DNA of 32,000 bases from an uncultured Candidatus Saccharibacteria bacterium (GCA_964475295.1 CAYYWC010000006.1:1-32000); one strand, 5' to 3'. Shown: positions 7,656 through 32,000, counted from the stretch's first letter. Program-made: numbers and translations. Notes: generated by a model from the sequence alone, not told the origin.

Positions 7656-7728
7656 GACGATAGTATAGCAGATGTTTGACAGATACACCATGACGCTCAC
7701 ATAAGCATAAGCTGGTATACTAAAGACC

Positions 7729-9699: not shown

Positions 9700-10392
9700 C
9701 TATGCATAAATATGCGAAACCCTCATCAGTAACATCGTAAAGACTAATACTGCGATGACAAAAAGTATCGCATAATGTTTACGAACAAACGTATGAAGAA
9801 AAGGGTAAAGCGCTTTTGTGATCTCATAGGCGACAAAATATCGCGCCATCCGAGCCACCACGGCAACAAGTATGAGCAGTGGTATGAAAAAGTCAAAGTC
9901 AAGCGACAAGTGGTTAAAAACCTTAAACGGCACCCCGGAGAATGGTTGGAAAAAAAGTCCCCATATTCCCCACTCCGAAAACCATGTTTGTACTTGAACA
10001 ATCATCGCCTCATGCACAAAAGGAAGCTGCACAAGAAAGCTTGGTGGCGCATGCCACAGTATACCAATCGTAGCCCCGATGATCGTCCCGATAATATCGT
10101 ACTTTAGCAAGTCAAACTTATGTCGAACCTTCATGAACATAATGAGAAACAACAGAAACTCAGGCAAGACAAACCATATAAACGCTTCAGCGGCTGCCCA
10201 CACGACAATTAACGCATTCGACTCAGGACTCATAAAGAATTGCTCGACAAATTGATTGAATCTCGGCCTCTTTGCCGCAATAGCACGCCTGTTTCGCCAC
10301 CAGAACATCGTCACAAATGGCATAAAAAATAAAATGATTGCCATAAATACGAATAGAAAATTAAAAATTAAACTAATGAAATACTCACCCAT
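9700..10392 (-). CDS. polytopic membrane protein (tentatively DedA/YqaA-like)
   Basis: 230 aa with about 5-6 TM helices. The segment VWAAAEAFIWFVLPEFLLFLI loosely resembles the DedA/YqaA re-entrant motif. The start is uncertain because the longest form overlaps the upstream UbiA gene by 25 nt. Confidence 0.45.
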   Translation of the reverse strand: MGEYFISLIFNFLFVFMAIILFFMPFVTMFWWRNRRAIAAKRPRFNQFVEQFFMSPESNALIVVWAAAEAFIWFVLPEFLLFLIMFMKVRHKFDLLKYDIIGTIIGATIGILWHAPPSFLVQLPFVHEAMIVQVQTWFSEWGIWGLFFQPFSGVPFKVFNHLSLDFDFFIPLLILVAVVARMARYFVAYEITKALYPFLHTFVRKHYAILFVIAVLVFTMLLMRVSHIYA

Positions 10393-11234
10393 ACCACGAT
10401 AAACCCGTAAAACAATAGTTCATACTGTAAGCATTGATGGAATTGATGATTCAGTCGCGTATACGAATGCTTTGGAGATAGTCGAGCTCGACAAGAAACA
10501 AGCCATATCGCAAGTGCGCCACCAAGTAATGTCCATAGCCATGTGCGAGATGCATCATGTAGCAGCCATGCTATCGAGATCAAAATACCGGCATACCCTA
10601 TAACCGACATTATCACGCTCACACTTCGAACCTTTGTTCTACCATATACAAGCAAGAATGTTCTCTTGTCATGTAGCGCGTCTCCGTGTGCGTCTTTATA
10701 GTCCTTTAGCATGGAAAGTGATACCCGTCCAATCGCAAAGCTTGCACCGAGACATAGTACGAGATACGACACCTCCAGACTCCCCAATGAGACACCAAGC
10801 ATGAATGGCACAAAAGCGTAGCATATACCTAAAAGTACAATAGAGCCAATCGGGCGTCGTGATACCTGAAAAGGTTTAGAATTGTACATCCAAGAAAGTA
10901 TAATAAATATACCAAGAAAAGCCACCGCGGATAGTGGCAGGAGTAATATACCGAGCCCCATTGCCACAAGAATCATCATATGAGCAATGTGACGCACGCT
11001 GTTCGGCGACATGATATCGATCAGCCCATCCTGTCTCCCATTCGTCTTGTCGATGACCTCATCTTCAATGTCATTCAAAAGTGTCACAGCACTATGGATG
11101 AGAAATGTCACGACGAGCGCACCAGCAACAACAGCATACGGCATATGAACGATCATACCGCCTAGATAGATAAGTATAAGCGGGAGAAGCGCATTATACG
11201 GTCGCATCGCAGCGATAAAGATACTAAAAAGCAT
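10368..11234 (-). CDS. UbiA-family aromatic/polyprenyl prenyltransferase
   Basis: 288 aa with about 8 TM helices. First Asp-rich motif LNDIEDEVIDKTNGR (NDxxDxxxD) and second Asp-rich motif KDYKDAHGDALHDKRT. Confidence 0.8.
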   Translation of the reverse strand: MLFSIFIAAMRPYNALLPLILIYLGGMIVHMPYAVVAGALVVTFLIHSAVTLLNDIEDEVIDKTNGRQDGLIDIMSPNSVRHIAHMMILVAMGLGILLLPLSAVAFLGIFIILSWMYNSKPFQVSRRPIGSIVLLGICYAFVPFMLGVSLGSLEVSYLVLCLGASFAIGRVSLSMLKDYKDAHGDALHDKRTFLLVYGRTKVRSVSVIMSVIGYAGILISIAWLLHDASRTWLWTLLGGALAIWLVSCRARLSPKHSYTRLNHQFHQCLQYELLFYGFIVVWVSISLV

Positions 11235-11247
11235 GACTCCCTATCTG

Positions 11248-11757
11248 CTAAGTACCGCGAACATCCTGCCCAGTTGCCGCCATAATAAACATAAAGAGGA
11301 TAAAAAGAATCATTGGAGCCATAGGAAGAAATATGATCAACCCTATGATACCCAGGACAATTATAGCTGCAGGGTTCGTCTTCTTCGGCTTCACCCAACC
11401 TGAGAACCCTGGTGTTACACTGCTTAGGGCCTTTTTGCTTGGCGCTACAAGTGACTTAATCGCAAGAATCGCAAAGACAATTACCGCAATTGTCATGGGT
11501 ACCGTCATAAATGCCCCCGCATCTGAAGAGAGCCCGACAAAGACGAGTAGTGCCGCAGCACCGCCGGCATACGTCCAGAAGTCTTTCATATTTGATGCAG
11601 CCTTCTGATCAACCACTTGCAGCGGCATGACAGGCTGGGGTTGCATAGGTACCTGTACCTGTGGTGCCGCACTGCGCAACCTTTCATACTCTTCACGACT
11701 GAGCCATACACCATTCACCTGCTCAGGTGAAACTTGAGGGTTTTGACTATTTTCCAT
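11248..11757 (-). CDS. membrane protein of unknown function
   Basis: 169 aa. Soluble Pro/Gln-rich N-terminus, then 3-4 TM helices. Its start overlaps the stop of the upstream gene by 11 nt, suggesting an operon with 11747..12454. Confidence 0.5.
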   Translation of the reverse strand: MENSQNPQVSPEQVNGVWLSREEYERLRSAAPQVQVPMQPQPVMPLQVVDQKAASNMKDFWTYAGGAAALLVFVGLSSDAGAFMTVPMTIAVIVFAILAIKSLVAPSKKALSSVTPGFSGWVKPKKTNPAAIIVLGIIGLIIFLPMAPMILFILFMFIMAATGQDVRGT

Positions 11758-16898: not shown

Positions 16899-18242
16899 AT
16901 GACCGCATCAACGGTCATTAACGACGTCGTCATTCGCTCCGCAGGAGCTGACGACTTCGAGTGGGTCGCTGATCTCATGGTTCGGGCGCTCAGTCCGTTC
17001 TATGACGGCGACCACCGTGCACACGCACGGCGCATTTTCGATACACACATGGAGGGAGGTATCGACCGTGTCGGTCACTTCTCGGCTGGACAGTACATGT
17101 TCATTGCCGAACAGGACGGGCAGCCGGTCGGACTAATCCACGTCGTGGAGAAGAAGCAAGAGACGGTAAAGATCAGTCCGCTGATCGTCAGCACCGACTA
17201 CCGTGGGAAGCTGGGAATCGGAAGCATGCTGCTCAGGCACGCTGAAGACTTTGCCCGCGACCTCGGTGCTCGGCAGCTGTACTGCACCGTCGCCTCGCCG
17301 AACCAGAAGGCGCTGGGGTTCTTCCTCCGGAGGGGCTTCCGCATCACCGGAACGGCGAAGGATCACTACAAGCAGGGCATCGACGAGCACATGCTGTACA
17401 AGCAGCTGGTCGATGAGCCGGGTTTCGACTCGCCCAACGTTTCAGTGATCCCCTTCGACGAGGAAGCGCACGCTGATGGTGCGCGCGACCTCATCCTTTC
17501 GCAGATGAGTAGCGTCTTTCGCGGTGTGGACGACGACTGGGTTGACGCCCTATACGCCGGCTACAAGCGAAAGGAGCTTGGCGACGTTAATGCCAAGTTC
17601 AAGATCATCTTCACTGCCGAGTGTGGCGGTGAGGTGGTCGGTATCGCCGGTGCTACGCCCAAGAAGGGGCAGCCCATCAAGCTGATGCCGCTCGTGGCGA
17701 AGTCGGAGGTAGCGTTCGAAGCGCTCGTCATTGATCTTCAGGGGCTACTGATGGACTACGGTCACAAGCTATACGTTCACTTGGTTCCTGAGCCGTGGCA
17801 GGTCGCCTGTCTCCAGCGCCATGGCTGGACACTGGAAGGCGTGTTCCCTGGCGGGTACGCACCGAACAGCGTCGTGCAGCAGTGGGGACTCAACTTCAAC
17901 AAGGAGGGAGCAACCGTGCGTAAGATGCGCATCAAGCGTCCGTATTTCGATGAAATCATGTCGGGTCGTAAGACCTTGGAGGTTCGCGTCGGATACGACA
18001 ACATCAAGCGCCTGAAGGCTGGTGAGCTATTGCAGCTCGAGACTGGACACACCTCGGGTGTGGTGCGGATCAAGTCGATCCGCGTCTACGACAACTTCGC
18101 CGACATGTTGGCGACGGAGCCGTGGCGCGAGATCGTTCCGCAGGTCGACAACCAGACGACCGCCCTCCGGCTCCTGCGCGAGATCTACCCCGCACACAGG
18201 GAACGCCTCGGCATCCACGTCATCGAGGTTGAAAAGCAGTAG
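16899..18242 (+). CDS. tandem GNAT N-acetyltransferase domains fused to a C-terminal ASCH domain
   Basis: 447 aa. GNAT 1 has motif A, STDYRGKLGIGSMLLRHAEDFARDLGARQLY...ALGFFLRRGF. A second, degenerate GNAT-like domain covers about residues 185-330. The C-terminus is MRIKRPYFDEIMSGRKTLEVRVGYDNIKRLKAGELLQLE...YDNFADML...GIHVIEVE, the same ASCH subfamily as the upstream gene. GC content is markedly higher than the flanks. Confidence 0.8.
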   Translation: MTASTVINDVVIRSAGADDFEWVADLMVRALSPFYDGDHRAHARRIFDTHMEGGIDRVGHFSAGQYMFIAEQDGQPVGLIHVVEKKQETVKISPLIVSTDYRGKLGIGSMLLRHAEDFARDLGARQLYCTVASPNQKALGFFLRRGFRITGTAKDHYKQGIDEHMLYKQLVDEPGFDSPNVSVIPFDEEAHADGARDLILSQMSSVFRGVDDDWVDALYAGYKRKELGDVNAKFKIIFTAECGGEVVGIAGATPKKGQPIKLMPLVAKSEVAFEALVIDLQGLLMDYGHKLYVHLVPEPWQVACLQRHGWTLEGVFPGGYAPNSVVQQWGLNFNKEGATVRKMRIKRPYFDEIMSGRKTLEVRVGYDNIKRLKAGELLQLETGHTSGVVRIKSIRVYDNFADMLATEPWREIVPQVDNQTTALRLLREIYPAHRERLGIHVIEVEKQ

Positions 18243-21377: not shown

Positions 21378-22520
21378 TTAATTTAAGAGACAGCGAACCC
21401 CGGCCCCGAAGTTGCGATTGTCGTAGCCATCGCCCGGGTAGAAATCGCTCGGATCGAAGCTCGCGAAGAAGGCGTAGTCCGGGTGGTCTGGGCTAGCAGA
21501 AGCAGACCACAAGGTACCCGCGTCGCCCTGAAAGCCAAAACCGCCGTACCAGCGGCCTGAGAACGACCCTTTAAATGGTCCAGACGGTTGCCACTTTGCG
21601 ACACTCGGACCGCCCGCACCTGTCCCGCCAAAGGCCACATCCAGCTGCCAGAGGTCGCTGCTTGGAGATCCACTGGTTGGAAGTCGCCAGTTAGCTGGAC
21701 AGATGGAATACTGGGCATTGCCGGAAGTAAAGGTGGTTCGCGTTTCCCCTGCGGTGGCTGCTGGGAAGTTGTAAAGATAGCCGTAGTTGGTAGCACCTGA
21801 GCCGGTGTCGCCAGGGACGGGGCCGTAGGCACGTGGGTTGTCATAGTCAGCCGTTCCGCCGGTTGTCAGCTGTGGCAGGGTGAAATTGCTGGCTACGTTG
21901 CTATCGGCTGGTGTGAGCGTGATTGACCCGCTGGTACTCCCGAGCTTAAGGTTGGTGAGCATCCAGCAGTTGCCGTCGGCAAGCTTGGCGACTTCGTAGT
22001 ATTGGGTGGTAGGACCACGGGTGTCGGCTAGGGAGATGATGGCATCAGCATTAGTGCCAGTGTAGGTATCGAGAGCGTCACATTGAGCTGCGGTAAAGTT
22101 TTGCATGGTAGCAAGTTCTGGTTCAGGTGGAGTGGTTGGGTTAGTGGGGTTGGTGCCGTCGCCTGGAGCTGGAGCTTCGGGACGATTGAGAGGGTCGGTG
22201 GTGCAGATAATAGTGCCGTTAGCTTCATAGTAGCAGCGCGACTCACCGGCGGCTGCTTGACCCTTGCCTGCACCAGTGGCAGTACCGAGGGTGCTCTGGG
22301 AAGAAGCACTATCGCTGGCCGGCGTAGCTGCGTTGCTGGCCTGCACAGCGGTATCCGAGCCGCCAGCAGCGGAGACGGCGGCGCGGTGCTGGATAAGTGT
22401 GAAGGCGGCCAGAAGGATGATAACGAGAGCAACGGTGGCGATGATAATACTACGGGGCTGATGTGAGATACGACGTAGTATAGTAGTTAGCGCAGCAGCT
22501 GTTGTAGTTATTTGTTTCAT
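21378..22520 (-). CDS. secreted/anchored protein with a low-complexity Ala/Thr/Pro linker and a C-terminal FISUMP (Fibrobacter succinogenes major paralogous, C-lectin-like) domain
   Basis: 380 aa. N-terminal anchor IIIATVALVIILLAAFTLI, then an A/S/T/G/P-rich linker. FISUMP hallmarks follow: LADTRGPTTQYYEVAKLADGNCWMLTNLKLG, CPANWRLPT and the terminal GAGVRCLLN. GC-rich. Confidence 0.75.
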   Translation of the reverse strand: MKQITTTAAALTTILRRISHQPRSIIIATVALVIILLAAFTLIQHRAAVSAAGGSDTAVQASNAATPASDSASSQSTLGTATGAGKGQAAAGESRCYYEANGTIICTTDPLNRPEAPAPGDGTNPTNPTTPPEPELATMQNFTAAQCDALDTYTGTNADAIISLADTRGPTTQYYEVAKLADGNCWMLTNLKLGSTSGSITLTPADSNVASNFTLPQLTTGGTADYDNPRAYGPVPGDTGSGATNYGYLYNFPAATAGETRTTFTSGNAQYSICPANWRLPTSGSPSSDLWQLDVAFGGTGAGGPSVAKWQPSGPFKGSFSGRWYGGFGFQGDAGTLWSASASPDHPDYAFFASFDPSDFYPGDGYDNRNFGAGVRCLLN

Positions 22521-22597: not shown

Positions 22598-23365
22598 GTG
22601 CAGTGGTGGGTGCACGATGTTATCTGGGGAGAGTATAGCATAGGCGGGATGAAGGTGTCTAGGGGAAACACGAAATACACCAAAAAACCTAGCCATATTC
22701 TAGAAAAACTTTCTAACTACAACGAAAAGGTAAGATTCGACGGTGTTTTACACTGTAGAAAATGTGATTACTTTTATGCCGACAAGCACAATTTCAATGT
22801 TTTCCTTAAGCACAACAAGCACGATGTAGCAGCACCGCGAAAAGAAATACAAATTCGTAACAATAAAATCTATTACCCTAGTTTTTGGAATGGCGCCCCG
22901 GATTCAGTACTTAGTCGCTACGGCTATTCTGCAGATGGCACGCTGCAGCAAAAGTCTAGGAGAAAGGTAATCTCCTACATAGTTGGAAGTAAGAGGATTA
23001 CTCCAGATGATTATACGGAAAACAAGCTACGCTACGACCAAGAAATAAGCCGTGTAAAACAGCAGATCGAACGGCTAGAAGAAGCCGATAAAAGCTTCTA
23101 CGTTACGGCTTCGTATCTGTTACAGCTATTCAAGCACGGCGAAAAGATTTTTGAATTAGCAAGTATAGAAGAAAAGCGTGAACTTCTGAAACTCGTGCTA
23201 TCGAACCTCGAATTAAAAGACAAAACGGTCCGTTTTACACCTAACGAACCGTTTGCTACTGTACTTAAATTGTCTGAACGTTCTACTTGGCAGGGGTACA
23301 TGGATGAAGATAGAACTTTTTACTCTGTTAGTGAAAACGCTATTTTAGGAGGCAAAAATGTTTAG
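22598..23365 (+). CDS. protein with a Cys/His-rich N-terminal region and a C-terminal half matching the coiled-coil/C-terminal domain of large serine recombinases (no catalytic resolvase domain)
   Basis: 255 aa from GTG 22598; alternative start ATG 22649 (MKVSRGNTKY). The C-terminal EEADKSFYVTASYLLQLFKHGEKIFELASIEEKRELLKLVLSNLELKDKTVRFTPNEPFATVLK...WQGYMDEDRTF matches the conserved tail of large serine recombinases (ekAD..yy.....ll.la......f......eKr.ll..vlsNl.l.......pf..l...W......RT). The N-terminus has HCRKCDYFYADKHNFNVFLKHNKH (CxxC...HxxH). The catalytic Ser domain is absent. Confidence 0.6.
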   Translation: MQWWVHDVIWGEYSIGGMKVSRGNTKYTKKPSHILEKLSNYNEKVRFDGVLHCRKCDYFYADKHNFNVFLKHNKHDVAAPRKEIQIRNNKIYYPSFWNGAPDSVLSRYGYSADGTLQQKSRRKVISYIVGSKRITPDDYTENKLRYDQEISRVKQQIERLEEADKSFYVTASYLLQLFKHGEKIFELASIEEKRELLKLVLSNLELKDKTVRFTPNEPFATVLKLSERSTWQGYMDEDRTFYSVSENAILGGKNV

Positions 23366-23804
23366 GTTAAATTCATCCTCTCTTTATGACCAGTCTACAT
23401 TTTATGATAGGTTTTATAAGGATCTTCGGAGTGCAAAACGCCGCGTAGTTATAGAAAGCCCGTTCATTACTCAGCGTCGTTCTACGCCCCTACTCGCCAC
23501 CATATCAAGGCTCAAAAAGCGCAGAGTCGAGGTTATAGTGAATACAAAACCGATCGAGGAGCATGATTCACAATATCAAGATCAAGTGGCTGTAGTTGTC
23601 GAAATGCTACAGAATCTGGGCGTGAGGGTGTTATTTACAATAGGTCACCACAGAAAGATCGCTATCATCGATGACATACTCTACGAAGGTAGCTTGAATA
23701 TACTGTCTCAAAACGATAGCTGTGAGCTGATGCGTCGCATAGATGACGCCTCATCGGTACAAGAGATACTACGCTTCACAAGACTGGAAAAATGGTGCAA
23801 ATGA
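23358..23804 (+). CDS. single-domain phospholipase-D-family (HxK) nuclease
   Basis: 148 aa. GHHRKIAIIDDILYEGSLNILSQ is the HxK(x)4D...GSxN PLD/Nuc motif. Its start overlaps the upstream stop by 8 nt. Confidence 0.8.
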   Translation: MFRLNSSSLYDQSTFYDRFYKDLRSAKRRVVIESPFITQRRSTPLLATISRLKKRRVEVIVNTKPIEEHDSQYQDQVAVVVEMLQNLGVRVLFTIGHHRKIAIIDDILYEGSLNILSQNDSCELMRRIDDASSVQEILRFTRLEKWCK

Positions 23805-23805
23805 T

Positions 23806-24315
23806 ATGATAGGTAGTATGGAATATCTAGGGTTAAGTGCCGGAGTCTTATTTGGTCTTGCGTACCTACACTTTTCACAAGCTATCGACTGGATTCTTGT
23901 CGTGCTTCACTATGCGTTCTTTAGGTCAAAAGATAGTTTCTACGGGTTGTATGACAATACTGAGCAAGAATCGGTTTATGAGCATCTGAAGTACGCAGAA
24001 ACAATAGCTGTAAAAGACTATGCCGATTATCTGCGCATACACCAGTCAGCTCGACCTTCGGCGTATAAGCGATTCAGAAAATATTACGACACGCTATTGC
24101 GAGTGATCTTGGTTCGTGTTTTGCCTATCACACTGCTGCCAGCTATCTTGTTCTGGTCTAATTGGTATTACTACATCGGAGGCATACTCATAGCATTTAC
24201 TGTATTGGCACTCTATGCGATTATCGTAAAACCACGCGGTGCTGGTGCCCGTAAGCGACTGATGGTGTTTGCTGTGATGCGAGACTACCTAAAGGACAGC
24301 AATAAGTCTAAATAA
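23806..24315 (+). CDS. membrane protein (2+2 TM) of unknown function
   Basis: Track ORF 23743..24315 trimmed to ATG 23806 (MIGSMEYLGLSAGVLFGLAYLHF), 1 nt after the PLD stop. There are two N-terminal and two C-terminal hydrophobic helices around a charged middle. Confidence 0.55.
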   Translation: MIGSMEYLGLSAGVLFGLAYLHFSQAIDWILVVLHYAFFRSKDSFYGLYDNTEQESVYEHLKYAETIAVKDYADYLRIHQSARPSAYKRFRKYYDTLLRVILVRVLPITLLPAILFWSNWYYYIGGILIAFTVLALYAIIVKPRGAGARKRLMVFAVMRDYLKDSNKSK

Positions 24316-24702
24316 TCTCCGCTACGTCTTTTAGCTGATTCGGATTTTTCTTTAAGTCAATCAAGGTAAAATTATCTGTTGCGTTGTGCTGCTCAAGCAC
24401 CGTCAGCTCATCTTCCCACAGATCATCGTCTAGCCATATAAACTTCTCCGAGAAGTTTAAGCCGTCCGTTTTCATTTCATTCCAGACGGTCGGCTTAATT
24501 TTGTCGAGCAGCGGCACGGTCTCCGGCTTGAGATGTGGCGCAAGTACTTCTTTAGTTCTGTTCTCGCCGCGCCAGTTGTGAGTCGTTAGCCAGTAGGTAG
24601 AATCAGGATATGCTGCACGTCTTGCAAGAACTCATCCGCATAATTTGTGGCGCTATCTTCGTTTGCTAGTAGTACTCCGTCAATGTCTAAGTAAACATTC
24701 AT
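24308..24702 (-). pseudogene. stand-alone HAD-like gene, frameshifted near 24612; paralog of the C-terminal domain of the RT chimera
   Basis: ATG 24702 reads MNVYLDIDGVLLANEDSATNYADEFLQDVQHILILPTG and then stops. Another frame, offset by one nucleotide, continues AAYPDSTYWLTTHNWRGENRTKEVLAPHLKPETVPLLDKIKPTVWNEMKTDGLNFSEKFIWLDDDLWEDELTVLEQHNATDNFTLIDLKKNPNQL (the track shows only the last 69 aa). It is collinear with residues 228-355 of the RT-HAD ORF. The start lies 3 nt after the stop of the NUDIX-SAHH-like gene. Confidence 0.7.
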
Positions 24703-24704
24703 GG

Positions 24705-26393
24705 CTAAGCATCATATTTATAAATATAGTCAACCCAGGCATCAGCTATTGCATTCTGCCTAGCCTTATCGTTTGTTTCCAGCTTGTGCTCCTTTTGCTT
24801 ACTGTCCCTACGCTCATATAGTGAAATAACACTACTCACCAACTCACCTTGTACTAGATAGATATACTTATCAACTGCCGCAGAGTACAAGAAGTTAACG
24901 GCATTACCATCATTCAATAGATGGAAGTGGTGACCTCTCTTTGAGTAGCGTGTAATATCTTTGGTAATTTTATCTTTTGAGTACTCGCTATCAATAAACC
25001 GCAAATCAAATTCATCATCTGACGATGTGACGGACGCCAAGAACGCGCCTCGCTTCAGATCTCTTAGTCTCAGGATATCTATTGCTTGTGACCCTGTCGC
25101 ACAGAAAACGACGTCGCTATTGCGCAGTAGATGACCAATAGGTACTACTCTTGCTCCATCGCACGAAGCCTGGACAGCACGCATAGCGTCAATCTCACAG
25201 ACATACGGCTGGACGCCACGCTGCTGTAAGTACTGAAATATGCCTCTTCCTATTTTTCCGTAACCAATAATGCCGCAGCTTTTGTAGGTAATGAGTGTAT
25301 TTAAGTCACGCAGTACCGTCTCGGCAGCATGAGCCACTCCGTTGCCAACCAATTGATCTTCAAAGCTCTTCAGCGGACTGCGAGCAACGGATATAACACG
25401 GAGATTATCCGGCATATTTTTTTCGTATTTTTGATGGCCATTTTCTGTATCTTCGACGACACCAAGTAGCTTCTTGCCTAGTTTCTTCTTAATTGAGGTG
25501 ATGCTCTCGCTAAAGTAGCCACCGATATCTACCATGCAAACATTGTCATATTTATCGAGGTAATTCGATATTTCGTCGGGGTTGCTCGTGATGCTTTCTC
25601 GAGTGAACTGACTGAGGATTGGTATATCTTTATCTGTTAGAAGAGCTTTGGTTCTTTTATTGATTGAGTTGGGCTTTGGGATTATTCCAATAAGATTGAA
25701 GTTTTCTTGCAAGCTAAGAATATAGCTCTCTGAGCTTGGGATAATATGCGACACTGCTATAACCGATATTTCTTTCCCTTGGTTATCTGCAATTGATCTA
25801 AAAAAATCACGTGGATTTGGCTCCAGCAAGCCCTCAATTCTATCGACAATAACCGTGAAGTGTGGGTCGTCTGCAAAAACCTCCCAGTCGACCCACTGGA
25901 AGCCATTTGATTCGTTAAGATCAACATTTATGTCAGACTTTTCAGTAATGTACAGATAACGAAAGTCGTGATGGTAATGTCCAGGCTCATTTTTGCGTGG
26001 ATTTTCTGGTATATAGTGGCTGTCGATATGGAACGGCACAATCGGATGATTACGCAAGACAGGCTGAAGGACTAACTCATCGGGTTTCAGTCCAGTTTCT
26101 TCCTCTACTTCTCTCAGTGTAGCCTCTAATGGCGAACCGTCTTCCTTGTCAATGTGCCCTCCGGGTTGTAGTAGCTTGCCGAGCGACTTATGCTGCAAGA
26201 GAAGTACCTGTCGTGTAAACTTGTTGATTACGAAAGCACTTGCAGTAATATGCCCGACAAAGTTCTTGCGTGATGTTATATCCTGATCATTCTGCTCGAG
26301 CTGTTCCGCAAGTAGCTTAAGGTTATTGACATCTTCAGTGTGGTTATCTATGTATTTCTCGTATAGTTCTTTAATCTGCATTAACTTTCCCAT
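24705..26393 (-). CDS. fusion of an N-terminal NUDIX hydrolase with a complete S-adenosylhomocysteine-hydrolase-like (NAD-binding) module
   Basis: 562 aa. Nudix box GGHIDKEDGSPLEATLREVEEETGL. The C-terminal 350 aa or so are collinear with the SAHH fold: GVVEDTENGHQKY (compare GvsEETTTGvhRL), VISVARSPLKSFEDQLVGNGVAHAAETVLR (compare inVNDSvTKskFDNlYGcreSl.dgi.R), and CGIIGYGKIGRGIFQYLQQRGVQPYVCEIDAMRAVQASCDGARVV...SDVVFCATGSQ (compare vvGYGdVGKGcA..lr..GA.V.vtEiDPi.AlQAamdG..V...DIfvTaTGn). Confidence 0.8.
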   Translation of the reverse strand: MGKLMQIKELYEKYIDNHTEDVNNLKLLAEQLEQNDQDITSRKNFVGHITASAFVINKFTRQVLLLQHKSLGKLLQPGGHIDKEDGSPLEATLREVEEETGLKPDELVLQPVLRNHPIVPFHIDSHYIPENPRKNEPGHYHHDFRYLYITEKSDINVDLNESNGFQWVDWEVFADDPHFTVIVDRIEGLLEPNPRDFFRSIADNQGKEISVIAVSHIIPSSESYILSLQENFNLIGIIPKPNSINKRTKALLTDKDIPILSQFTRESITSNPDEISNYLDKYDNVCMVDIGGYFSESITSIKKKLGKKLLGVVEDTENGHQKYEKNMPDNLRVISVARSPLKSFEDQLVGNGVAHAAETVLRDLNTLITYKSCGIIGYGKIGRGIFQYLQQRGVQPYVCEIDAMRAVQASCDGARVVPIGHLLRNSDVVFCATGSQAIDILRLRDLKRGAFLASVTSSDDEFDLRFIDSEYSKDKITKDITRYSKRGHHFHLLNDGNAVNFLYSAAVDKYIYLVQGELVSSVISLYERRDSKQKEHKLETNDKARQNAIADAWVDYIYKYDA

Positions 26394-26427
26394 ATCGCTA
26401 TTATAGACTAGATTATCTCTTAAAACT

Positions 26428-26442
26428 ATGCTATTATAGCAT
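26428..26442. promoter_or_regulatory. 15-bp palindrome ATGCTATTATAGCAT in the divergent promoter region, with a second GCTATTATAG copy at 26397-26406
   Basis: 7-bp arms ATGCTAT/ATAGCAT around a central T. The 10-mer GCTATTATAG is repeated 33 nt away. The reverse complement of the first copy gives TATAAT (26405-26400), 6 nt from ATG 26393, which implies a leaderless NUDIX-SAHH mRNA. The second copy reads TGCTATTAT, an extended -10-like sequence for the + strand kinase gene. Confidence 0.4.
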
Positions 26443-26460
26443 CAAATCGTGTAATTTTCA

Positions 26461-27069
26461 ATGGAGCGAAATGTGAAGTTACCAGAAATTATCGGAATAA
26501 GCGGAACGAACGGAGCAGGCAAAGATACGCTTGCTGCCCTGCGCTACGAAAGAGAAGGTGCTGAGCATGTCAGCCTTAGTGATATATTGCGCAGAGAATT
26601 AACTATGCTCGGCGTCCCTCTTGAGAGAGAAAATCTCATGAATCTGAGTAGACAGTGGCGCGATGAAAGCGGAGATTACGGAATATTGGCCACACGCACA
26701 ATTCAACGATACCTCGGAGACAAAGCCGTTACATCAACCCTAAACGGACTATCAATTGTCAGTGTACGACACCCCGATGAAGCAAGACGTATCAAAGAGG
26801 CTAACGGTAAGATTTTTTGGGTTGATGCTGACCCGAAATTAAGATACGAGCGCATCCAGTCAGGCGGTAGAAATCGAATCGATGATCGAAAAAGCTTCGA
26901 AGAGTTTATTGATGAAGAGCAACGCGAAATAAGTCCAATCGATTCTGATCCAGCAAGCGTTAACTTGGGTGAAGTGTCACGCATTGCTGATGTAAAGATT
27001 GAAAACAATTTTGATGACGAATCAGCATATATCGACTTCTTGCTTGATCGATATTTCTCCGAGTGCTAG
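26461..27069 (+). CDS. P-loop nucleoside/nucleotide kinase (CoaE- or dNMP-kinase-like)
   Basis: 202 aa. Walker A IGISGTNGAGKDTLA (GKDT as in dNMP-kinase/CoaE-like small kinases). Size and helix pattern fit the NMP-kinase fold. Confidence 0.65.
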   Translation: MERNVKLPEIIGISGTNGAGKDTLAALRYEREGAEHVSLSDILRRELTMLGVPLERENLMNLSRQWRDESGDYGILATRTIQRYLGDKAVTSTLNGLSIVSVRHPDEARRIKEANGKIFWVDADPKLRYERIQSGGRNRIDDRKSFEEFIDEEQREISPIDSDPASVNLGEVSRIADVKIENNFDDESAYIDFLLDRYFSEC

Positions 27070-27080
27070 CGGGCTTCCTT

Positions 27081-28295
27081 CTATATAGATTTACAGACTT
27101 CTATAACACGGCTAGCGACTTTCTTGATATCATTATCGCTCGAATGAATATTGATACCAAAGGCAGATCCGAGTCCACCGTCGACAACTCCAACACTAAC
27201 GTTGACACAGCGACTTAGGATATCGTCAGTTTTTGGCAGATCACCTGCGTGAGTGAACTTACCCTGGGCAGACCAATTCTTGGTCGGTGTCTTATGTTCG
27301 ATGATCTGCTCCATATTACTGTAAACGTGCCAACCAGATTCTGATAAGGGCATATTTCCTAACTGCTCACTAACTTTCTTTGCCATTTCTTTGGTGTCAA
27401 AAATTACTGTCAGCATTGTTGCACACTCGCCATCGACATCATTGATTTTCCTAAAGGACAGTCCGGAGATGTTCGCTTCTTCTATGTAACCCTTCAGTTG
27501 CCGCTTCTTCTCGCGTAAGACTTGCAGCATTCCTTCCAGTTTTCTTGCCTGAGCCAGTGCAACCGCACCAGATAGCTCGTTCATCTGAAAGTTAAGTCCT
27601 ACGAGACTCCTGTTTCCCACCTCTTTACCACTCCTGTTGGGCATGTGACCTTGGTCGCTAATGGCAAAAGCTCTTTGGTGCAAGGCGTCATCATCGGTGA
27701 CGATAATACCGCCACTACCCGCAGCAATGTTCTTGTGTTGATTTAGCGAGAATGCTCCGATATCTCCAAATGTACCGAGCTTCTTTCCCTTAAAAGACCC
27801 TCCTGCCGCCTGGCACCCATCTTCAATCACAAAGAGGCTGTGCCTCTTGGCTATATCCATTATGGCATCCATATCGCAAGGATTGCCGAGCATATGAACC
27901 GGCATAATAGCCTTCGTTTTCTCTGTAATTTTACTTTCCAAGTCCGTAGGGTCGATAGTAAGAGATTCATCCACCTCGACCAATACAGGTGTGGCACGAG
28001 AATAGATGATTGAGCCGATTGACGCCACAAAGGTGTAGCCGGGAACCAATACCTCGTCGCCTTCCTGCAGGCCAAGAGCGAGTAGTGATATGAATAATGA
28101 GCCCGTACCAGAACTGTTCGCAATGGCGTGGCGAGATCCTAGGTAGTTGGCAAATTCTTGCTCGAGTGAGTAGACCTTATGCTTGAACTTAGGGTCGTCG
28201 AGACTACCGTACCGAGATAAATAACCGCTCTCAAGTACATCCAGTACCTCTTTTCGCTCCTCGTCGCCAAAACTATATGCACCCGGACCAGCCAT
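27081..28295 (-). CDS. DegT/DnrJ/EryC1/StsC-family PLP-dependent aminotransferase
   Basis: 404 aa. NSSGTGSLFISLLALGLQEGDEVLVPGYTFVAS, FVIEDGCQAAGG, and the PLP-lysine region AFSLNQHKNIAAGSGGIIVTDD. The N-terminal ...YLSRYGSLDDPKFKHKVYSLEQEF insertion resembles the glutamine:scyllo-inosose (StsC-like) subgroup. Confidence 0.85.
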   Translation of the reverse strand: MAGPGAYSFGDEERKEVLDVLESGYLSRYGSLDDPKFKHKVYSLEQEFANYLGSRHAIANSSGTGSLFISLLALGLQEGDEVLVPGYTFVASIGSIIYSRATPVLVEVDESLTIDPTDLESKITEKTKAIMPVHMLGNPCDMDAIMDIAKRHSLFVIEDGCQAAGGSFKGKKLGTFGDIGAFSLNQHKNIAAGSGGIIVTDDDALHQRAFAISDQGHMPNRSGKEVGNRSLVGLNFQMNELSGAVALAQARKLEGMLQVLREKKRQLKGYIEEANISGLSFRKINDVDGECATMLTVIFDTKEMAKKVSEQLGNMPLSESGWHVYSNMEQIIEHKTPTKNWSAQGKFTHAGDLPKTDDILSRCVNVSVGVVDGGLGSAFGINIHSSDNDIKKVASRVIEVCKSI

Positions 28296-28348: not shown

Positions 28349-28410
28349 TGCGTAAATATCAAGGTGTCGTAAAAATATCGTAATATTGAGTGATACGGAG
28401 GTTGGGCAAG

Positions 28411-29418
28411 ATGGGTAAAATTCGTATAGGGTTGATTGGATATGGCCGTTTAGGTTCAATTCATGCTGAAAATATCAACAAATCAGAATATGCCGAGCTT
28501 TATGCGGTATGCGACACCAACTCTGATGTGCTATTTGAAGCGAAGAAACTCTATGAAAATATCCTGACTTTCGACAGCCTGGATGATTTTCTAAAGGCGC
28601 CTTTTGATGGGGTTGTTATCGCCTCAAACACACATTTGCATGTCGAGCACATAAAACTAGCAGCTCAAGCCGGCAAGCATATATTTACCGAGAAGCCGAT
28701 TGGACTAACATTGCCAGAGACTGATGAAGCCCTACAGGACGTAGTGAACGCTGGCGTCAAATTCCAAATTGGCTTTCAGCGGCGCTGGGATCCTCGATAC
28801 TTAGAAGTAAAAAGAATAATTGACAGTGGCAAGATTGGTACACCTGTGCTATTCAAGGCGTACGGGCGTGACCCGAACGCCTCGAATCCTGACAACTGGG
28901 GCCTGGACAAGAACGGTGGACTGTTCTTGAACGCCGCCATCCATGACTATGATGCAGCTCGATTCTTGCTTAAGCAGGAGGCGCTTGAAATTTCTGCAAA
29001 CGGCGCAGCACTTGTGTATACCGACCTCAGAAAATACCAAGATATTGATACTTGTGCGACCACAATATTGATGAGCAATGACACTATGGCAATTACCGAA
29101 TGGAGTCGTTATGCTTCCTACGGATACGATATCTCTGCCGAAGTAATAGGCACAGATGGCGTCATTCGGATAGGCAATGAGCAAGATAGCGGCGTGACAT
29201 TGCGACTGCGAAACGAGCGGTCTCCTAAAGTAATCGATGTTTTCCGAGATTCGTACGCGGCCGAGATAGACGCTTTTGCGCTCGCAATCAAAAACGACAC
29301 TGCGCCAACACCGGGCATTGAAGATGCACGAATCGCGCTTCATCTTGCATTGCTAGCTAGACAGTCGTTTGAAGAAAGTAAGGTTATAAAGGTGACCAAT
29401 CCTGCAAAACTGGACTAG
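28411..29418 (+). CDS. Gfo/Idh/MocA-family NAD(P)-dependent oxidoreductase (IolG-like)
   Basis: Trimmed to ATG 28411 (MGKIRIGLIGYGRLGSIHAENI, the Rossmann GxGxxG). EKP motif FTEKPIGLT, GFQRRWDPRY and AIHDYD, as in inositol/sugar dehydrogenases of this family. Confidence 0.85.
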   Translation: MGKIRIGLIGYGRLGSIHAENINKSEYAELYAVCDTNSDVLFEAKKLYENILTFDSLDDFLKAPFDGVVIASNTHLHVEHIKLAAQAGKHIFTEKPIGLTLPETDEALQDVVNAGVKFQIGFQRRWDPRYLEVKRIIDSGKIGTPVLFKAYGRDPNASNPDNWGLDKNGGLFLNAAIHDYDAARFLLKQEALEISANGAALVYTDLRKYQDIDTCATTILMSNDTMAITEWSRYASYGYDISAEVIGTDGVIRIGNEQDSGVTLRLRNERSPKVIDVFRDSYAAEIDAFALAIKNDTAPTPGIEDARIALHLALLARQSFEESKVIKVTNPAKLD

Positions 29419-29421
29419 ATT

Positions 29422-30036
29422 ATGAGTACCGAGCTATACCTCATACGACATGGAGAAGCGGCCAATAACGTGCGGCAGAATTATATCGCAGGACGTAGCA
29501 ATCATTTTCCGCTAACAGAAAATGGCGTAGAGCAATCACGCAAATTGGGCGCTGCCTTACTGGGCATAGGCTTATTGCCAGATGTCGTATACTCCTCTCC
29601 GGCAGTCCGAGCACTCCAAACTGCACGTCACACACTTAATGCAATGTCGTACAAAACCTTGATACACGAGGATGACCGCCTGCAAGAACAAGATGTTGGC
29701 GAATGGGTTGGACGTGTGGCGACGGAAGTATTTACGGATGAGCAAGTTGCCGAGATTGATAGGCTTGGAAAAGAGTTCCGGTCTCCTGGTGGAGAATCAT
29801 TCAATGATGTGGGTGACAGGACGTACGAATGGGCTGATTCAATAGTTGACGACGGACGTATATTTGCCTTCACTCACGGTGGTACTATCCGCTGCCTCGC
29901 ATCGAGGCTAGAGTCTTGGTCGCACCCTCAAACGTATCAGACACGCCCTGGCAATACGTCGGTAAGTCTGTTGACGCGCACTAGCGGTGATTGGCAATTA
30001 GAGTATATAGGAAAAGATGTAGAGGAGATAAAATAG
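29422..30036 (+). CDS. histidine phosphatase superfamily (phosphoglycerate-mutase/CobC-like) phosphatase
   Basis: 204 aa. The N-terminal LYLIRHGEAANN (RHG catalytic motif), PLTENGVEQS and VYSSPAVRALQTA, plus a C-terminal FTHGGTIR (second catalytic His). Confidence 0.8.
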   Translation: MSTELYLIRHGEAANNVRQNYIAGRSNHFPLTENGVEQSRKLGAALLGIGLLPDVVYSSPAVRALQTARHTLNAMSYKTLIHEDDRLQEQDVGEWVGRVATEVFTDEQVAEIDRLGKEFRSPGGESFNDVGDRTYEWADSIVDDGRIFAFTHGGTIRCLASRLESWSHPQTYQTRPGNTSVSLLTRTSGDWQLEYIGKDVEEIK

Positions 30037-30753
30037 ATGACTGGGCAGGAAGTTCCGCAGGAGATTACAGCTCGCCTCACGGCAGACGCTCTCATTAAAT
30101 CGAGCCTTAAATCGGTTATTTGGTTCGGCTCTGTAAGGAACAGTCAGGATGTGCATGACCGCTCGGACTGTGACCTGCAAATCGTATTAGATAAGCCTTC
30201 ACACGAACTTATCGTTGCCGTCAACGCCACACTGGAGGACTATCCGAGCGTTGACCTGAGTATTATGTATATGCAAGACATATACAATCATGCAGGCGAT
30301 GTCATATTTCATGATGGCACAAAAAGCCTCTTCTTCATGTATGTGCTTGCTGTCGGAGAGATACTGTATGGCGATAATGTCTACGCAGGTATAGTAAAAA
30401 ATCTAAGCCTCGATGACATACGGCCATCTCTGTTGGTAACGATACGTGAGTATCTATCGCGACTACGAGTCATGGCCATTCAGCAGACAAATGACACGCT
30501 TGGATTCAAGAAGTACAGTCTCAAGCTATTCAAAGATACCCTGGTATACATTGGCGAGGAAAAGCCCGAAGCCATTTCTGCTATTACGAATGATACTGCC
30601 AAGGAGGCGATACAGCACATCTATCCTTTCAGCAACGGATCAACAAAGGCACTAGACGACATTACAAATTATGACAGAAACTACACGCGCGAAGAAATGG
30701 CTTATCTTCTGACGGATTACGAGAACATTATAGAAAGACTTTGCAATGAATAA
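30037..30753 (+). CDS. minimal Pol-beta-superfamily nucleotidyltransferase with a helical C-terminal domain (ANT/KNTase-like architecture)
   Basis: 238 aa. VIWFGSVRNSQDVHDRSDCDLQIVLD is the GS-x(9-13)-D-x-D NTase motif, followed by about 130 aa of predicted helices. The ATG directly abuts the upstream stop. Confidence 0.7.
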   Translation: MTGQEVPQEITARLTADALIKSSLKSVIWFGSVRNSQDVHDRSDCDLQIVLDKPSHELIVAVNATLEDYPSVDLSIMYMQDIYNHAGDVIFHDGTKSLFFMYVLAVGEILYGDNVYAGIVKNLSLDDIRPSLLVTIREYLSRLRVMAIQQTNDTLGFKKYSLKLFKDTLVYIGEEKPEAISAITNDTAKEAIQHIYPFSNGSTKALDDITNYDRNYTREEMAYLLTDYENIIERLCNE

Positions 30754-32000
30754 TATCGAGAAAATACCAGCACTCTCTCCGAGCGTCGAACTCGAGGATA
30801 AGTCTCCGGGCGATTTTGGAGAGATTAGACAAGACGTTGCCGAGCGCCTATTCAAGGATCCGTCCTATACGGCGTTTGACGCAATGGCCGAAATGTCTGC
30901 GGCTGCCGAAGAATATATCAATAAACTTTCAAATCAATATCCCGGTCTCAAGCTATGGGTCGGCGGCTCTCTTGGTCGTCGCGAGATGCTCCCAAATTCA
31001 GATATTGACCTCTTTGTCATATATGATGACGAGGACTACGAAGAGAGTGATATCAGAGTTGATGGAGTTGATAAATTCGAGGTCGGACATATTAGTAAAA
31101 GCCGGCTGCACGACTTGTTGAATTATTCACTAGTTGATGCCAACCGTTTTATTGACGGGAGAATGGTCGGTCATGTACCTGCTCACGATATAGAAAGCAT
31201 GATCCTCGAAGCAAACACCCTCGACCACCAGCTCGCTAACAATATTAGTGAATATTTCTTCTATCGTTATTTTGACTTCCCAAATAAAACCACGCCTATG
31301 GGGCCAAATCTAAAATACAGTACTGGATCAAGTAGAGATACCATTTTCTTCAATATGATTTCTCGGATGAGTACGGGTAATTTCCCTGCTATACGAGGTG
31401 ATAATCCTGAGCTGCCAGAAGTTATGGCTGATGCCGAAGAGCGGTATGGTCTGCGTGCGCCATTTAAGGCGACGGATCTGCTTTTTACGGTAAAAAATGC
31501 AGCTATATCTGTCTACGATAAAAGTGGCGATATGCGTAACCGATATGTGTCTCCGACGAGCTTAGAGGCTATCTACGAATTCGCTAAAGATAAGTTTCAA
31601 GCATGGGGTATCGAGGATAGCGGACAATTTATCGAAACTTACTCGGCAGCGAGACAGGAGCTAGAATATACAGTTGATACGATGTTGACGCGAGTTCTTT
31701 CTGAGTATCCTGCGGTAGAATCTTTTGAGCAAGTCCTGAAAGCAACGCCGAAACGCTTACCGGGGCTTTGTGTTGAGCTTATCAATAGCGATTCTGATTA
31801 TCCGCACTCTGTCGCTGCCTTCAGCACATGGTACGCCTCTACCGGACGAGTAGACGGAGCTAGTATGGAAAGAATTGCCGATGAGCTGATGAAGCAACCG
31901 CTAGATCGATCATGGGGTGCACTCATGGCAGTCGCGTGCTGCCCCTACACTCCAGACTCTACGCTCTCAGAGCTGGCTGATTGGTTGTACGAGAACGAAA
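30746..32000 (+). CDS. GlnD/GlnE-like nucleotidyltransferase (partial; continues past the window end)
   Basis: Absent from the track because it has no stop in the window. ATG 30746 overlaps the upstream stop (ATGAATAA). My translation is open to 32000: ...LWVGGSLGRREMLPNSDIDLFVIYDDE (NTase motif as in PII uridylyltransferase), ...LVDANRFIDGRMVG and GPNLKYSTGSSRDTIFFNMI (compare GlnD P.iKeg.GGlRDi). Confidence 0.75.
   Translation, partial: MNNIEKIPALSPSVELEDKSPGDFGEIRQDVAERLFKDPSYTAFDAMAEMSAAAEEYINKLSNQYPGLKLWVGGSLGRREMLPNSDIDLFVIYDDEDYEESDIRVDGVDKFEVGHISKSRLHDLLNYSLVDANRFIDGRMVGHVPAHDIESMILEANTLDHQLANNISEYFFYRYFDFPNKTTPMGPNLKYSTGSSRDTIFFNMISRMSTGNFPAIRGDNPELPEVMADAEERYGLRAPFKATDLLFTVKNAAISVYDKSGDMRNRYVSPTSLEAIYEFAKDKFQAWGIEDSGQFIETYSAARQELEYTVDTMLTRVLSEYPAVESFEQVLKATPKRLPGLCVELINSDSDYPHSVAAFSTWYASTGRVDGASMERIADELMKQPLDRSWGALMAVACCPYTPDSTLSELADWLYENE

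Follow-up and report, generated by a model that had tools for sequence, protein, structure and literature searches.

What does a protein do that joins a Nudix hydrolase to a module resembling S-adenosylhomocysteine hydrolase (SAHH)? The question is raised by a gene on a 32,000-nucleotide stretch of DNA from an uncultured Candidatus Saccharibacteria bacterium (GCA_964475295.1, CAYYWC010000006.1:1-32000), hereafter the window, in which a first-pass annotation had noticed a single 562-residue open reading frame (ORF) with both halves. To our knowledge, SAHH is among the most conserved of enzymes, and very few examples that depart from its reaction have been characterised (S-inosylhomocysteine hydrolase and AgmF). 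The fusion is genuine: Pfam, NCBIfam, alignments to PDB sequences and fold search agree on the two halves, and a chance fusion or assembly artefact was ruled out by the recovery of 141 fused homologs, with identity down to ~32%, together with split and reverse-order forms. Its SAHH-like module belongs to a clade that is distinct and rare. Coordinates of the features discussed are collected in Table 1.

The fused protein and its altered active site

The C-terminal part proved SAHH-like across both halves, as had been claimed. Pfam AdoHcyase_NAD was matched at E 3.8e-18 (66.6 bits; cut-off 27), and the NCBIfam adenosylhomocysteinase models aligned with residues 200-551, collinear with the substrate-binding and the NAD-binding half of SAHH. 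Scores on these models were 40-93 bits against equivalog cut-offs of 275-512, below the cut-off in every case; the best was 92.6 bits against 275, the others 40-86 against 440-512 (the TIGR00936 and PRK05476 equivalogs). A PDB sequence search with the C-terminal two-thirds returned ~50 SAHH entries, the best being 3x2e/5tov (E 8.6e-17). The fusion protein was modelled by AlphaFold2 with a predicted local distance difference test (pLDDT) score of 91.6 and a predicted template modelling (TM) score of 0.77, and the top 50 Foldseek matches of the model in the PDB were all SAHH (E ~1e-20; target-normalised TM 0.6-0.78; 385-470 aligned columns). The first-pass annotation had named a generic 2-hydroxyacid or other dehydrogenase as the alternative that a fold search might turn up; that candidate was rejected, since 2-Hacid_dh_C was a weak secondary Pfam match and the fold search returned SAHH exclusively. 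Relative to SAHH, the module is without ~45 N-terminal residues and a C-terminal tail of ~30 residues.

Within this fold, the signature residues have changed. A HMMER alignment to the SAHH of T. maritima and an alignment to human SAHH (with which HMMER alignments to PDB SAHHs agree) both placed EDTENG where SAHH has EETTTG and VARS where it has (V/I)NDS (SVARS for NVNDS). Both replacements had been remarked upon from the window protein by itself, and both are fixed across the clade. The GYGxxGxG segment is present as GYGKIGRG, and the E-I-D...A-V-Q-A motif was also found. The motifs of the clade are H216-IIP, K240-P-x-S243-I, D289-I-GGYF, E314-DTENG, S335-VARSxLK342xxE345-D346, GYGK380IGRG, S454-VTS457-SDDE and GNAVN500-F.

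We aligned 267 recovered proteins to a hidden Markov model of the clade; 256 have the SAHH-like core, the 141 fused homologs among them. Four residues of human SAHH are kept at their equivalent positions: His55 as His216 (243 of 256, the remainder gaps and one Gln), Lys186 as Lys342 (254), Asp190 as Asp346 (251) and Asn346 as Asn500 (252). The NAD site is likewise retained in its GYGKIGRG segment, its acidic beta-2 residue and N500. At the position of human Asp131, the window protein has Ile290 and the clade has Ile, Val or Met, with Asp in none of the 256; at that of His301 it has Ser457, which is Ser in 254. No conserved His was found in the human SAHH alignment at the position equivalent to His353, which lies in the adenine loop (HPSFVMS), and both this loop and the C-terminal tail are lost. 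In SAHH, the tail completes the NAD site of the neighbouring subunit. A new set of residues has become near-invariant in the clade (Lys240, Glu317, Asn318, Ala337, Arg338, Glu345 and Lys380), Glu345 being conserved in all 256.

Because Asp131 is replaced by Ile and His301 by Ser, and because neither the adenine loop nor the C-terminal tail is present, no SAHH activity is expected and the window protein is predicted not to be an AdoHcy (S-adenosylhomocysteine) hydrolase. A substrate other than AdoHcy had been suggested earlier; the altered signature residues, fixed in the clade, do speak against AdoHcy hydrolysis. In the study of AgmF, an enzyme of the same superfamily, the Lys was assigned to deprotonation of the hydroxyl during oxidation, Asp129/131 to abstraction of the adjacent C-H and two His residues to handling of the leaving hydroxyl, and variants H56A, D129A, K184A, D188A and H299A were each tested (PMC8599513). 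Mapped onto these roles, the residue pattern leads us to infer that the clade keeps NAD-dependent 3'-oxidation and has dispensed with the 4',5'-elimination and rehydration of SAHH and AgmF.

One could still imagine a hydrolase or lyase that works with alternative residues on 5'-substituted adenosines (AdoHcy, S-inosylhomocysteine, methylthioadenosine or 5'-deoxyadenosine), by-products of enzymes dependent on S-adenosylmethionine (SAM), with the Nudix domain an unrelated house-cleaning addition. The retained fold and Lys/Asp/His triad speak for it, as do the database label 'adenosylhomocysteinase' on relatives and one subfamily whose translation is coupled to that of a large SAM-dependent methyltransferase (see below). 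We regard it as quite improbable: the family scores fall well short of all SAHH equivalog cut-offs, the residues equivalent to Asp131 and His301 are replaced clade-wide, His353 has no conserved counterpart and the tail is missing, AgmF demonstrates that even the full catalytic set is no guarantee of activity on AdoHcy (PMC8599513), and the consistent phosphohydrolase partner would be left unexplained.

The Nudix half matched Pfam NUDIX (PF00293) over residues 48-173 (E 2.4e-12; 47.4 bits, cut-off 21.1), and residues 14-191 aligned in the PDB sequence search with 3fcm, an uncharacterised Nudix protein of Clostridium perfringens (E 1e-11). Foldseek matches to an AlphaFold2 model of this module alone (pLDDT 91.2) were all Nudix at the top; 3fcm/3f6a and 1k2e, all uncharacterised, came first, and the nearest characterised folds were Ap4A hydrolases, RppH, NUDX1 and dihydroneopterin-triphosphate pyrophosphatase, each a nucleotide pyrophosphohydrolase. 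A complete Nudix box had been reported, and it is indeed present, with two departures from the canonical GX5EX7REUXEEXGU: a spacer longer by one residue, and Asp85 instead of the first Glu. Its catalytic part is intact (R94-E95-x2-E98-E99-x-G-L, as REVEEETGL) and conserved at 88-96% among 151 members (R94 in 145, E95 in 133, E98 in 135, E99 in 136). The module also carries His-rich motifs specific to the clade (GH48xT, H68, GGH80, H126 and H139-Y-H141-H142-D143), of which H48, H80, H126, H139, H141 and D143 are near-invariant.

Pairing with nucleotide phosphohydrolases

Perhaps the most telling property of the SAHH-like module is the company it keeps. When architectures were counted by tblastn over 93 fetched loci, the Nudix domain was fused ahead of the module in 41, and in another 38 the two were separate genes, always SAHH-like first and Nudix second, with gaps of 9-125 nt between the high-scoring segments; the remaining 14 had no adjacent Nudix. 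In one Streptomyces locus (L080), the SAHH-like gene (9968-11089) and the Nudix gene (11086-11646) overlap by 4 nt, and one protein (P0144) is a fusion in the reverse order, SAHH-like then Nudix. The fused Nudix box is degenerate (KKLHRETG) in one lineage of Saccharimonadales, and there the gene directly downstream encodes a separate Nudix protein that belongs to the same subfamily.

Other phosphohydrolases can take the place of Nudix. The SAHH-like protein was matched in 42 plasmid records of Lactiplantibacillus plantarum, and in the two inspected it stands last in an operon of overlapping genes, MFS transporter, HD-domain phosphohydrolase, SAHH-like. Small 'holin-like toxin' genes often flank this operon, and no functional literature on it was found. 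In Neptuniibacter (L045), a gene for a HAD hydrolase follows the SAHH-like gene. The window itself has a HAD-like gene that begins 2 nt past the stop codon of the fusion; three-frame translation gave MNVYLDIDGVL... in one frame and ...WLTTHNW...FIWLDDD... in another, and its match to Pfam HAD_SAK_2 was weak (E 0.004, below cut-off). This split gene is either a pseudogene or the result of a sequencing or assembly error. SAHH-like proteins from fused, split, HD- and HAD-partnered loci share the clade motifs.

The module would appear to need an adjacent phosphohydrolase, because fusions occur in both orders, separate genes are translationally coupled, a dead domain is compensated by an intact one, and Nudix, HD and HAD enzymes displace one another. 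That it is usually coupled in function to a nucleotide phosphohydrolase is strongly supported by these gene arrangements. Channeling from Nudix cleavage to NAD-dependent 3'-oxidation had been proposed for the window protein; comparative genomics upholds the functional coupling, while the channeling and the 3'-oxidation are conjectural parts of that proposal.

How widespread is the clade? A word-indexed search returned full-length fusions from 95% down to 38% identity, labelled 'NUDIX domain-containing protein' or 'adenosylhomocysteinase'. Peptide patterns specific to the clade, applied to one genome per GTDB species, gave at least 542 encoding loci, in ~540 of 185,579 species genomes. The nearest named loci to that of the window lie in metagenome-assembled genomes (MAGs) of Candidatus Saccharibacteria; carriers also include other Patescibacteria, a Micrarchaeota MAG, Bacteroidota, Bacillota, Planctomycetota, Bdellovibrionota, Paracidovorax, Acidovorax and very many Streptomyces and Kitasatospora. 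Those in culture include L. plantarum (on plasmids), Streptococcus sciuri, S. porcorum, Paracidovorax avenae and many Streptomyces. When 1.84 billion cluster representatives were searched exhaustively with HMMER, 353 were found at E <= 1e-30, the majority of them stand-alone proteins of ~370-400 residues, so that the fusion is the minority form. Neither Pfam, NCBIfam, PADLOC nor PHROG holds a family that defines the clade or the fusion, and full-text literature searching found no description of either. The architecture had been called unusual and unlike any described family: it is indeed real and undescribed, and it is not unique, since the module of which it is one form occurs in more than 540 species genomes.

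The enzyme-level model we favour, and to which we give about an even chance, is of a bifunctional enzyme from this uncharacterised clade of the SAHH superfamily, whose members usually act together with a nucleotide phosphohydrolase to convert or destroy a nucleotide. By analogy with its family, the Nudix domain, its catalytic residues intact, would cleave a nucleotide pyrophosphate (a nucleoside triphosphate (NTP), a nucleoside diphosphate (NDP) or an NDP-X compound) to the nucleoside monophosphate (NMP), which neighbouring HAD or histidine phosphatases could convert to the nucleoside. Judging from the conserved residues, the SAHH-like module would then bind NAD+ and oxidise the 3'-OH of the sugar to a ketone through Lys342, Asp346 and His216. 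The missing residues suggest that neither C4'-H abstraction nor the handling of a 5' leaving group or water would follow. The 3'-keto species may itself be the product, to be passed on or to decompose, or it may be used for further chemistry by Lys240, Glu317, Asn318, Arg338 and Glu345; C2' chemistry, base elimination, epimerisation and transamination, the last by hand-off to an aminotransferase, are candidates. 3'-Keto nucleosides readily lose their base. The genomic contexts suggest that it probably converts or destroys nucleotides in a metabolism that is specialised or related to conflict, and that it has no part in the methyl cycle.

Genomic contexts across lineages

Several contexts are suggestive of such metabolism. 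Loci in Firmicutes combine MFS exporters with a protein resembling a non-ribosomal peptide synthetase (NRPS), which consists of an adenylation and a carrier domain (A-T) followed, in L029, by ~400 C-terminal residues that have no Pfam match; this last part might be a new condensation or transfer domain whose substrate is the product of the module. In Streptomyces, an operon resembling a biosynthetic gene cluster encodes a carbamoyltransferase, a glycosyltransferase-like protein, a methyltransferase, two kinase-like proteins (read as APH-type by eye from the sequence rather than by a family search), a P-loop kinase, a histidine phosphatase, an SDR, the SAHH-like protein, Nudix and a KdsB-like cytidylyltransferase. 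Further phosphohydrolases, of the HD and CYTH families, were found near clade genes. Nucleotide kinases recur as well (AAA_17, dNK, DNMK, NDK, ADK, thymidylate kinase, AAA_28 and PfkB), several of them enzymes of deoxynucleotides. A single orthologous kinase as universal third component was considered and rejected, as the kinases of different loci are alike at the level of Walker A alone.

Other contexts are those of mobile elements and defence. A conjugative transposon carries the clade gene with DCD and a kinase that matches an anti-phage dCTP deaminase protein (E 8e-19), and at one locus the clade gene adjoins a SIR2_2 and HerA pair. On 14 contigs, the SAHH-like gene is the third of an operon that begins with a NERD/Ser-Thr kinase and an Eco57I/MmeI-type methyltransferase; in L100, this third gene encodes a zinc finger joined to the SAHH-like protein and overlaps its neighbour by 4 nt, and AAA_28 and thymidylate kinases flank the operon. 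The arrangement resembles a Pgl/BREX-type system with an extra enzyme. Finally, in four proteins of ~1,170 residues (P0206, P0207, P0223 and P0243), the SAHH-like module lies N-terminal to NB-ARC and DUF7779, followed by a long tail resembling helical repeats. By Pfam, the window protein is itself without an NB-ARC or NACHT NTPase, which the distant members P0206 and P0223 have.

These STAND fusions bear on a further alternative, in which the module does not catalyse and instead senses a ligand (NAD, adenosine or a nucleotide), like the AHCY-like IRBIT proteins, to regulate a Nudix or a STAND NTPase. Regulatory AHCY-like proteins exist, and the fusions do put the module at a terminus. We consider such a sensor most improbable, since even very distant members share, almost without exception, a dozen residues of the active-site region as well as the catalytic Lys, Asp and His, stand-alone forms are the majority, and the N-terminal position in STAND proteins is usually that of the effector, as known from fungal NLRs. 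In bacterial STAND proteins, too, the N-terminal position is usually held by an effector and not a sensor.

A narrower form of the favoured model would make the clade a conflict enzyme. Once phosphate has been stripped or a STAND protein has assembled, it would oxidise the 3'-OH of (deoxy)nucleosides or nucleotides and so destroy the pool or yield a chain terminator or antimetabolite; we advance this tentatively and think it doubtful. Several observations weigh against it, or against the favoured model more generally. PADLOC-DB v2 had no defence model matching the window protein, nor one matching the NLR-type fusion P0206; its matches were limited to neighbours of clade genes (PDC-S01, the dCTPase kinase domain, IetA and a restriction helicase). 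The links to defence genes are single cases and do not amount to a statistical enrichment, and the partner kinases are not orthologous to each other. The clade is nearly absent from phages, and a phage-encoded family was rejected on that account: it occurred in 4 of 2.9 million viral contigs and was matched in none of 50,697 phage records. The catalytic assignment is a homology mapping of residues. One lineage (P0093), seen on more than 20 contigs, has the fusion gene between secY and adk in the ribosomal-protein operon, and in several lineages the clade gene is found amid housekeeping genes, as fits a housekeeping role over one in conflict. A ribosomal-protein operon is an unusual site for an accessory gene.

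The same placements favour a role in salvage or sanitation, whereby scavenged or damaged nucleotides would be taken to nucleosides, ribose and bases, and kinases would re-phosphorylate them, in hosts of reduced nucleotide metabolism. The gene is frequent in reduced-genome Patescibacteria and present in a Micrarchaeota MAG, several loci are lone among housekeeping genes, salvage-type kinases are among the neighbours (dNK, NDK, ADK, PfkB, TMK), and the rest of the window is ordinary chromosome. We nevertheless judge such a role unlikely. A housekeeping enzyme would not be expected at the sparse frequencies given above, among species genomes and protein representatives alike, nor on plasmids and a conjugative transposon, nor linked to STAND NTPase fusions, defence-like operons, exporters and an NRPS-like protein.

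Under the model of nucleotide conversion or destruction, the clade keeps the machinery of NAD-dependent oxidation and exchanges the residues of 4'/5' chemistry for a new invariant set, and the contexts (plasmids, a conjugative transposon, exporters, NRPS-like and gene-cluster-like loci, BREX/Pgl-like operons and the NLR effector position) suggest an undescribed nucleotide reaction of ecological or immune relevance. A modified nucleoside, should that be the product, could serve as a new antimetabolite scaffold; nucleotide destruction, should that be the activity, would be a new mechanism for nucleotide-depletion immunity. Were the conflict proposal true, the clade would represent NAD-dependent antiviral or antibacterial nucleotide chemistry distinct from that of viperins, deaminases, dNTPases and PNP-type nucleosidases. 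The cultured carriers make the question directly testable.

The window neighbourhood and comparison with known systems

The start of the fusion gene is uncertain. Homologs P0003, P0023 and P0033 begin with MQIKELY, matching the window protein from Met5, and P0001, which is 95% identical to it, is 558 residues long. The mRNA had been taken to be leaderless on account of a TATAAT 6 nt before the first ATG. That hexamer is present, and the promoter scan flagged no acceptable -35 hexamer for it. A leaderless message is not supported, nor is it the simplest reading, because a near-consensus candidate promoter lies farther upstream (11 of 12 matches in a consensus scan, which implies no functional evidence; its -10 hexamer, TATAAT, is at 26433-26438) and because conserved proteins start at Met5. 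The upstream promoter would leave a leader of roughly 30-45 nt.

Next to the fusion gene is a divergently transcribed gene for a P-loop kinase with a PHROG match to dNMP kinase and weak similarity to the anti-phage dCTP deaminase protein. It is conserved at this position in Saccharibacteria (cluster c23 in L007, L008, L010, L012 and L013; also L094). Beyond it begins a block with genes for a DegT aminotransferase and a Gfo/Idh/MocA dehydrogenase. Nine loci of Saccharibacteria, with identities as low as 54%, have this DegT/Gfo block next to the fusion gene or no more than 6 kb from it. The two are adjacent in L007, L014, L094, L095 and L103 and 4-6 kb apart in L012, L013 and L104. It is absent from L008-L010 and from all loci examined outside Saccharibacteria. 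As a universal partner it was rejected, being confined to Saccharibacteria and frequent but not obligate there; we treat it as a lineage-specific association, and the support that the window's own context can lend to the favoured model is weakened to that extent. Genes for a PfkB kinase and an Exo_endo_phos protein extend the block in L094.

The block looks like a pathway from a 3-keto to a 3-amino sugar, cyclitol or nucleoside, and it invites an explanation particular to the window: that the fusion protein, with the Gfo and DegT enzymes, phosphatases, kinase and nucleotidyltransferases, produces an antimetabolite of the puromycin/ADG kind, a nucleoside or nucleotide whose sugar is 3'-amino-3'-deoxy or modified in some other way. 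The Nudix domain would then have the part of Pur7 (NTP to NMP), and the SAHH-like domain would be either the source of the 3'-keto intermediate or the enzyme that acts on it. Pur10 (a RifL-like, NAD-dependent NTP 3'-dehydrogenase), the aminotransferase Pur4, the Nudix Pur7 and the phosphatase Pur3 are the established minimal pathway, whose logic yields 3'-amino-3'-deoxy purine nucleosides, accompanied by an MFS exporter (PMC11641026, PMC9239236). The window has analogous enzymes adjacent to one another, the likeness being one of enzyme class alone, and in Saccharibacteria the block stays beside the fusion gene even at 54% identity. The dehydrogenase is IolG-like, with 295 bits on the inositol 2-dehydrogenase model, which makes an inosose, inosamine or kanosamine-type route at least as likely, and the phosphatases (His_Phos_1 and HAD) are of other folds. 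If the Gfo enzyme oxidises, the SAHH-like domain would be redundant; there is no exporter within the window; and the block is missing elsewhere, as described. We think this pathway rather unlikely.

Elsewhere the window has the gene content of an ordinary Saccharibacteria chromosome (PlsY, CdsA, Ham1, a branching-enzyme-like protein, a histidine kinase, tRNA-Ala), and its unremarkable composition gave no clear signal of horizontal transfer. A few further genes merit mention. A small PLD-like (HxK) protein at 23358-23804 (+) has a domain similar to the PLD domains that Mokosh MkoC and MkoB carry (PADLOC, E 2e-11); the gene overlapping it at 23743-24315 (+) encodes a 190-residue protein, membrane-associated by eye, with no family match. 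At 22598-23365 (+), a 255-residue ORF has a Cys-rich segment and a coiled-coil-like C-terminus; Pfam found nothing, though by eye it resembles the C-terminal part of a large serine recombinase, and it may be a mobile-element remnant beside the locus. The gene at 21378-22520 (-) has a Thr/Pro/Ala/Gly-rich N-terminal half, a sub-cut-off match to the Fibrobacter-succinogenes-major domain and a GC fraction of 0.58, well above its surroundings. A fusion of GNAT acetyltransferase and ASCH (447 residues; 16899-18242, +) has a GC fraction of 0.54, above the window mean, and an AAA_33/zeta-toxin-like P-loop kinase at 7065-7793 (-) stands beside a YgjP-like metallopeptidase.

Table 1. Features of the fusion gene, its neighbourhood in the window and selected loci of other lineages (aa, amino acids; L-numbers denote fetched loci)
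Feature	Position	Strand	Remarks
Nudix-SAHH-like fusion ORF	24705..26393	minus	562 aa; stop codon 24705-24707
Candidate true start, second ATG (Met5)	26381	minus	product would be 558 aa
Nudix module, residues 1-195	25809..26393	minus	two N-terminal helices and Nudix alpha/beta/alpha core
Nudix box, residues 78-102	26088..26162	minus	GGHIDKEDGSPLEATLREVEEETGL (ORF translation)
SAHH-like module, residues 197-562	24708..25805	minus	substrate-binding-type domain and NAD-binding Rossmann domain
NAD-binding Rossmann domain, residues 359-501	24891..25319	minus	Pfam AdoHcyase_NAD; GYGKIGRG; acidic E400 at end of beta-2
Second TATAAT	26400..26405	minus	6 nt 5' of first ATG
Best sigma-70-like promoter	26433..26461	minus	TTGAAA, 17-nt spacer with extended-10 TG, TATAAT; consensus scan
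Frameshifted HAD-like hydrolase gene	24308..24702	minus	three-frame translation
Divergently transcribed P-loop kinase, AAA_17/AAA_18-like	26461..27069	plus	immediate neighbour of fusion gene
DegT aminotransferase	27081-28295	minus	
Gfo/Idh/MocA IolG-like dehydrogenase	28390-29418	plus	inositol 2-dehydrogenase model
Histidine phosphatase (His_Phos_1)	29422-30036	plus	
Pol-beta-type nucleotidyltransferase-like protein	30037-30753	plus	238 aa
Further gene running off window end	~30752-32000	plus	position of NTP_transf_2 protein in L094/L095
MFS - HD - SAHH-like operon	L091 5931-9128; L092 5939-9131		L. plantarum plasmids
NRPS-like A-T partner	L029 309-3200 (c25)		homologs in L026, L027, L030, L031
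NERD-kinase operon	L100 68-9863; also L101		1,441-aa NERD and Ser/Thr-kinase; 1,204-1,214-aa methyltransferase with DUF7008
P0206, NLR-type fusion	L099 5165-8659		Dot/Icm (Legionellales-like) contig; neighbours: AbiEii, PADLOC candidate PDC-S01 and an ankyrin protein of 1,231 aa
secY-adk insertion	L096 7001-8689; L097 2520-4208		

Comparison with known systems places the clade as follows. With SAHH (PDB 3x2e, 1li4, 6gbn) it shares the two-domain fold, the NAD-binding GxGxxG, the acidic beta-2 residue, Asn346 and the set His55/Lys186/Asp190; unlike SAHH, the module, which is ~20% identical to it, has Asp131 and His301 replaced, lacks N- and C-terminal parts and usually has a phosphohydrolase partner. 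AgmF is an SAHH-like, NAD+-self-sufficient dehydratase with tightly bound NAD from a specialised nucleoside pathway, angustmycin biosynthesis, and, as proposed for the clade, it does not hydrolyse AdoHcy and turns transient sugar oxidation to other nucleoside chemistry (PMC8599513). The two differ in that AgmF keeps H56/D129/K184/D188/H299 (PMC8599513), two of which the clade lacks, the window protein having Ile in the position of D129 and Ser in that of H299, and in that AgmF has no Nudix partner.

Nudix enzymes of nucleoside-antibiotic pathways (Pur7, CstH, AdgD, TubG) take NTP to NMP beside enzymes that oxidise or modify the sugar, and the adg operon of Photorhabdus has a linked MFS exporter, as have the Firmicutes and L. 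plantarum loci described here. Compared by enzyme class, the Pur7 type stands alone and is paired with a Gfo/Idh/MocA-type dehydrogenase, Pur10, and not with an SAHH fold, whereas the Nudix domain of the window is nearest to the structural-genomics proteins 3fcm and 3f6a. Among NLRs, PNP_UDP is a recognised effector class (PMC4986451); like such PNP_UDP/Pfs-like domains, the SAHH-like module of P0206, P0207, P0223 and P0243 is a fold of nucleoside metabolism placed N-terminal to NB-ARC/NACHT, differing in that it is not a PNP/Pfs fold and that the window protein has no STAND NTPase. The superfamily of the clade is a known one, and so is the strategy proposed for it, transient NAD-dependent oxidation of a sugar; what is new in the clade is the catalytic inventory, the phosphohydrolase partner in most of its forms and its use as an N-terminal module of NLR-type proteins.

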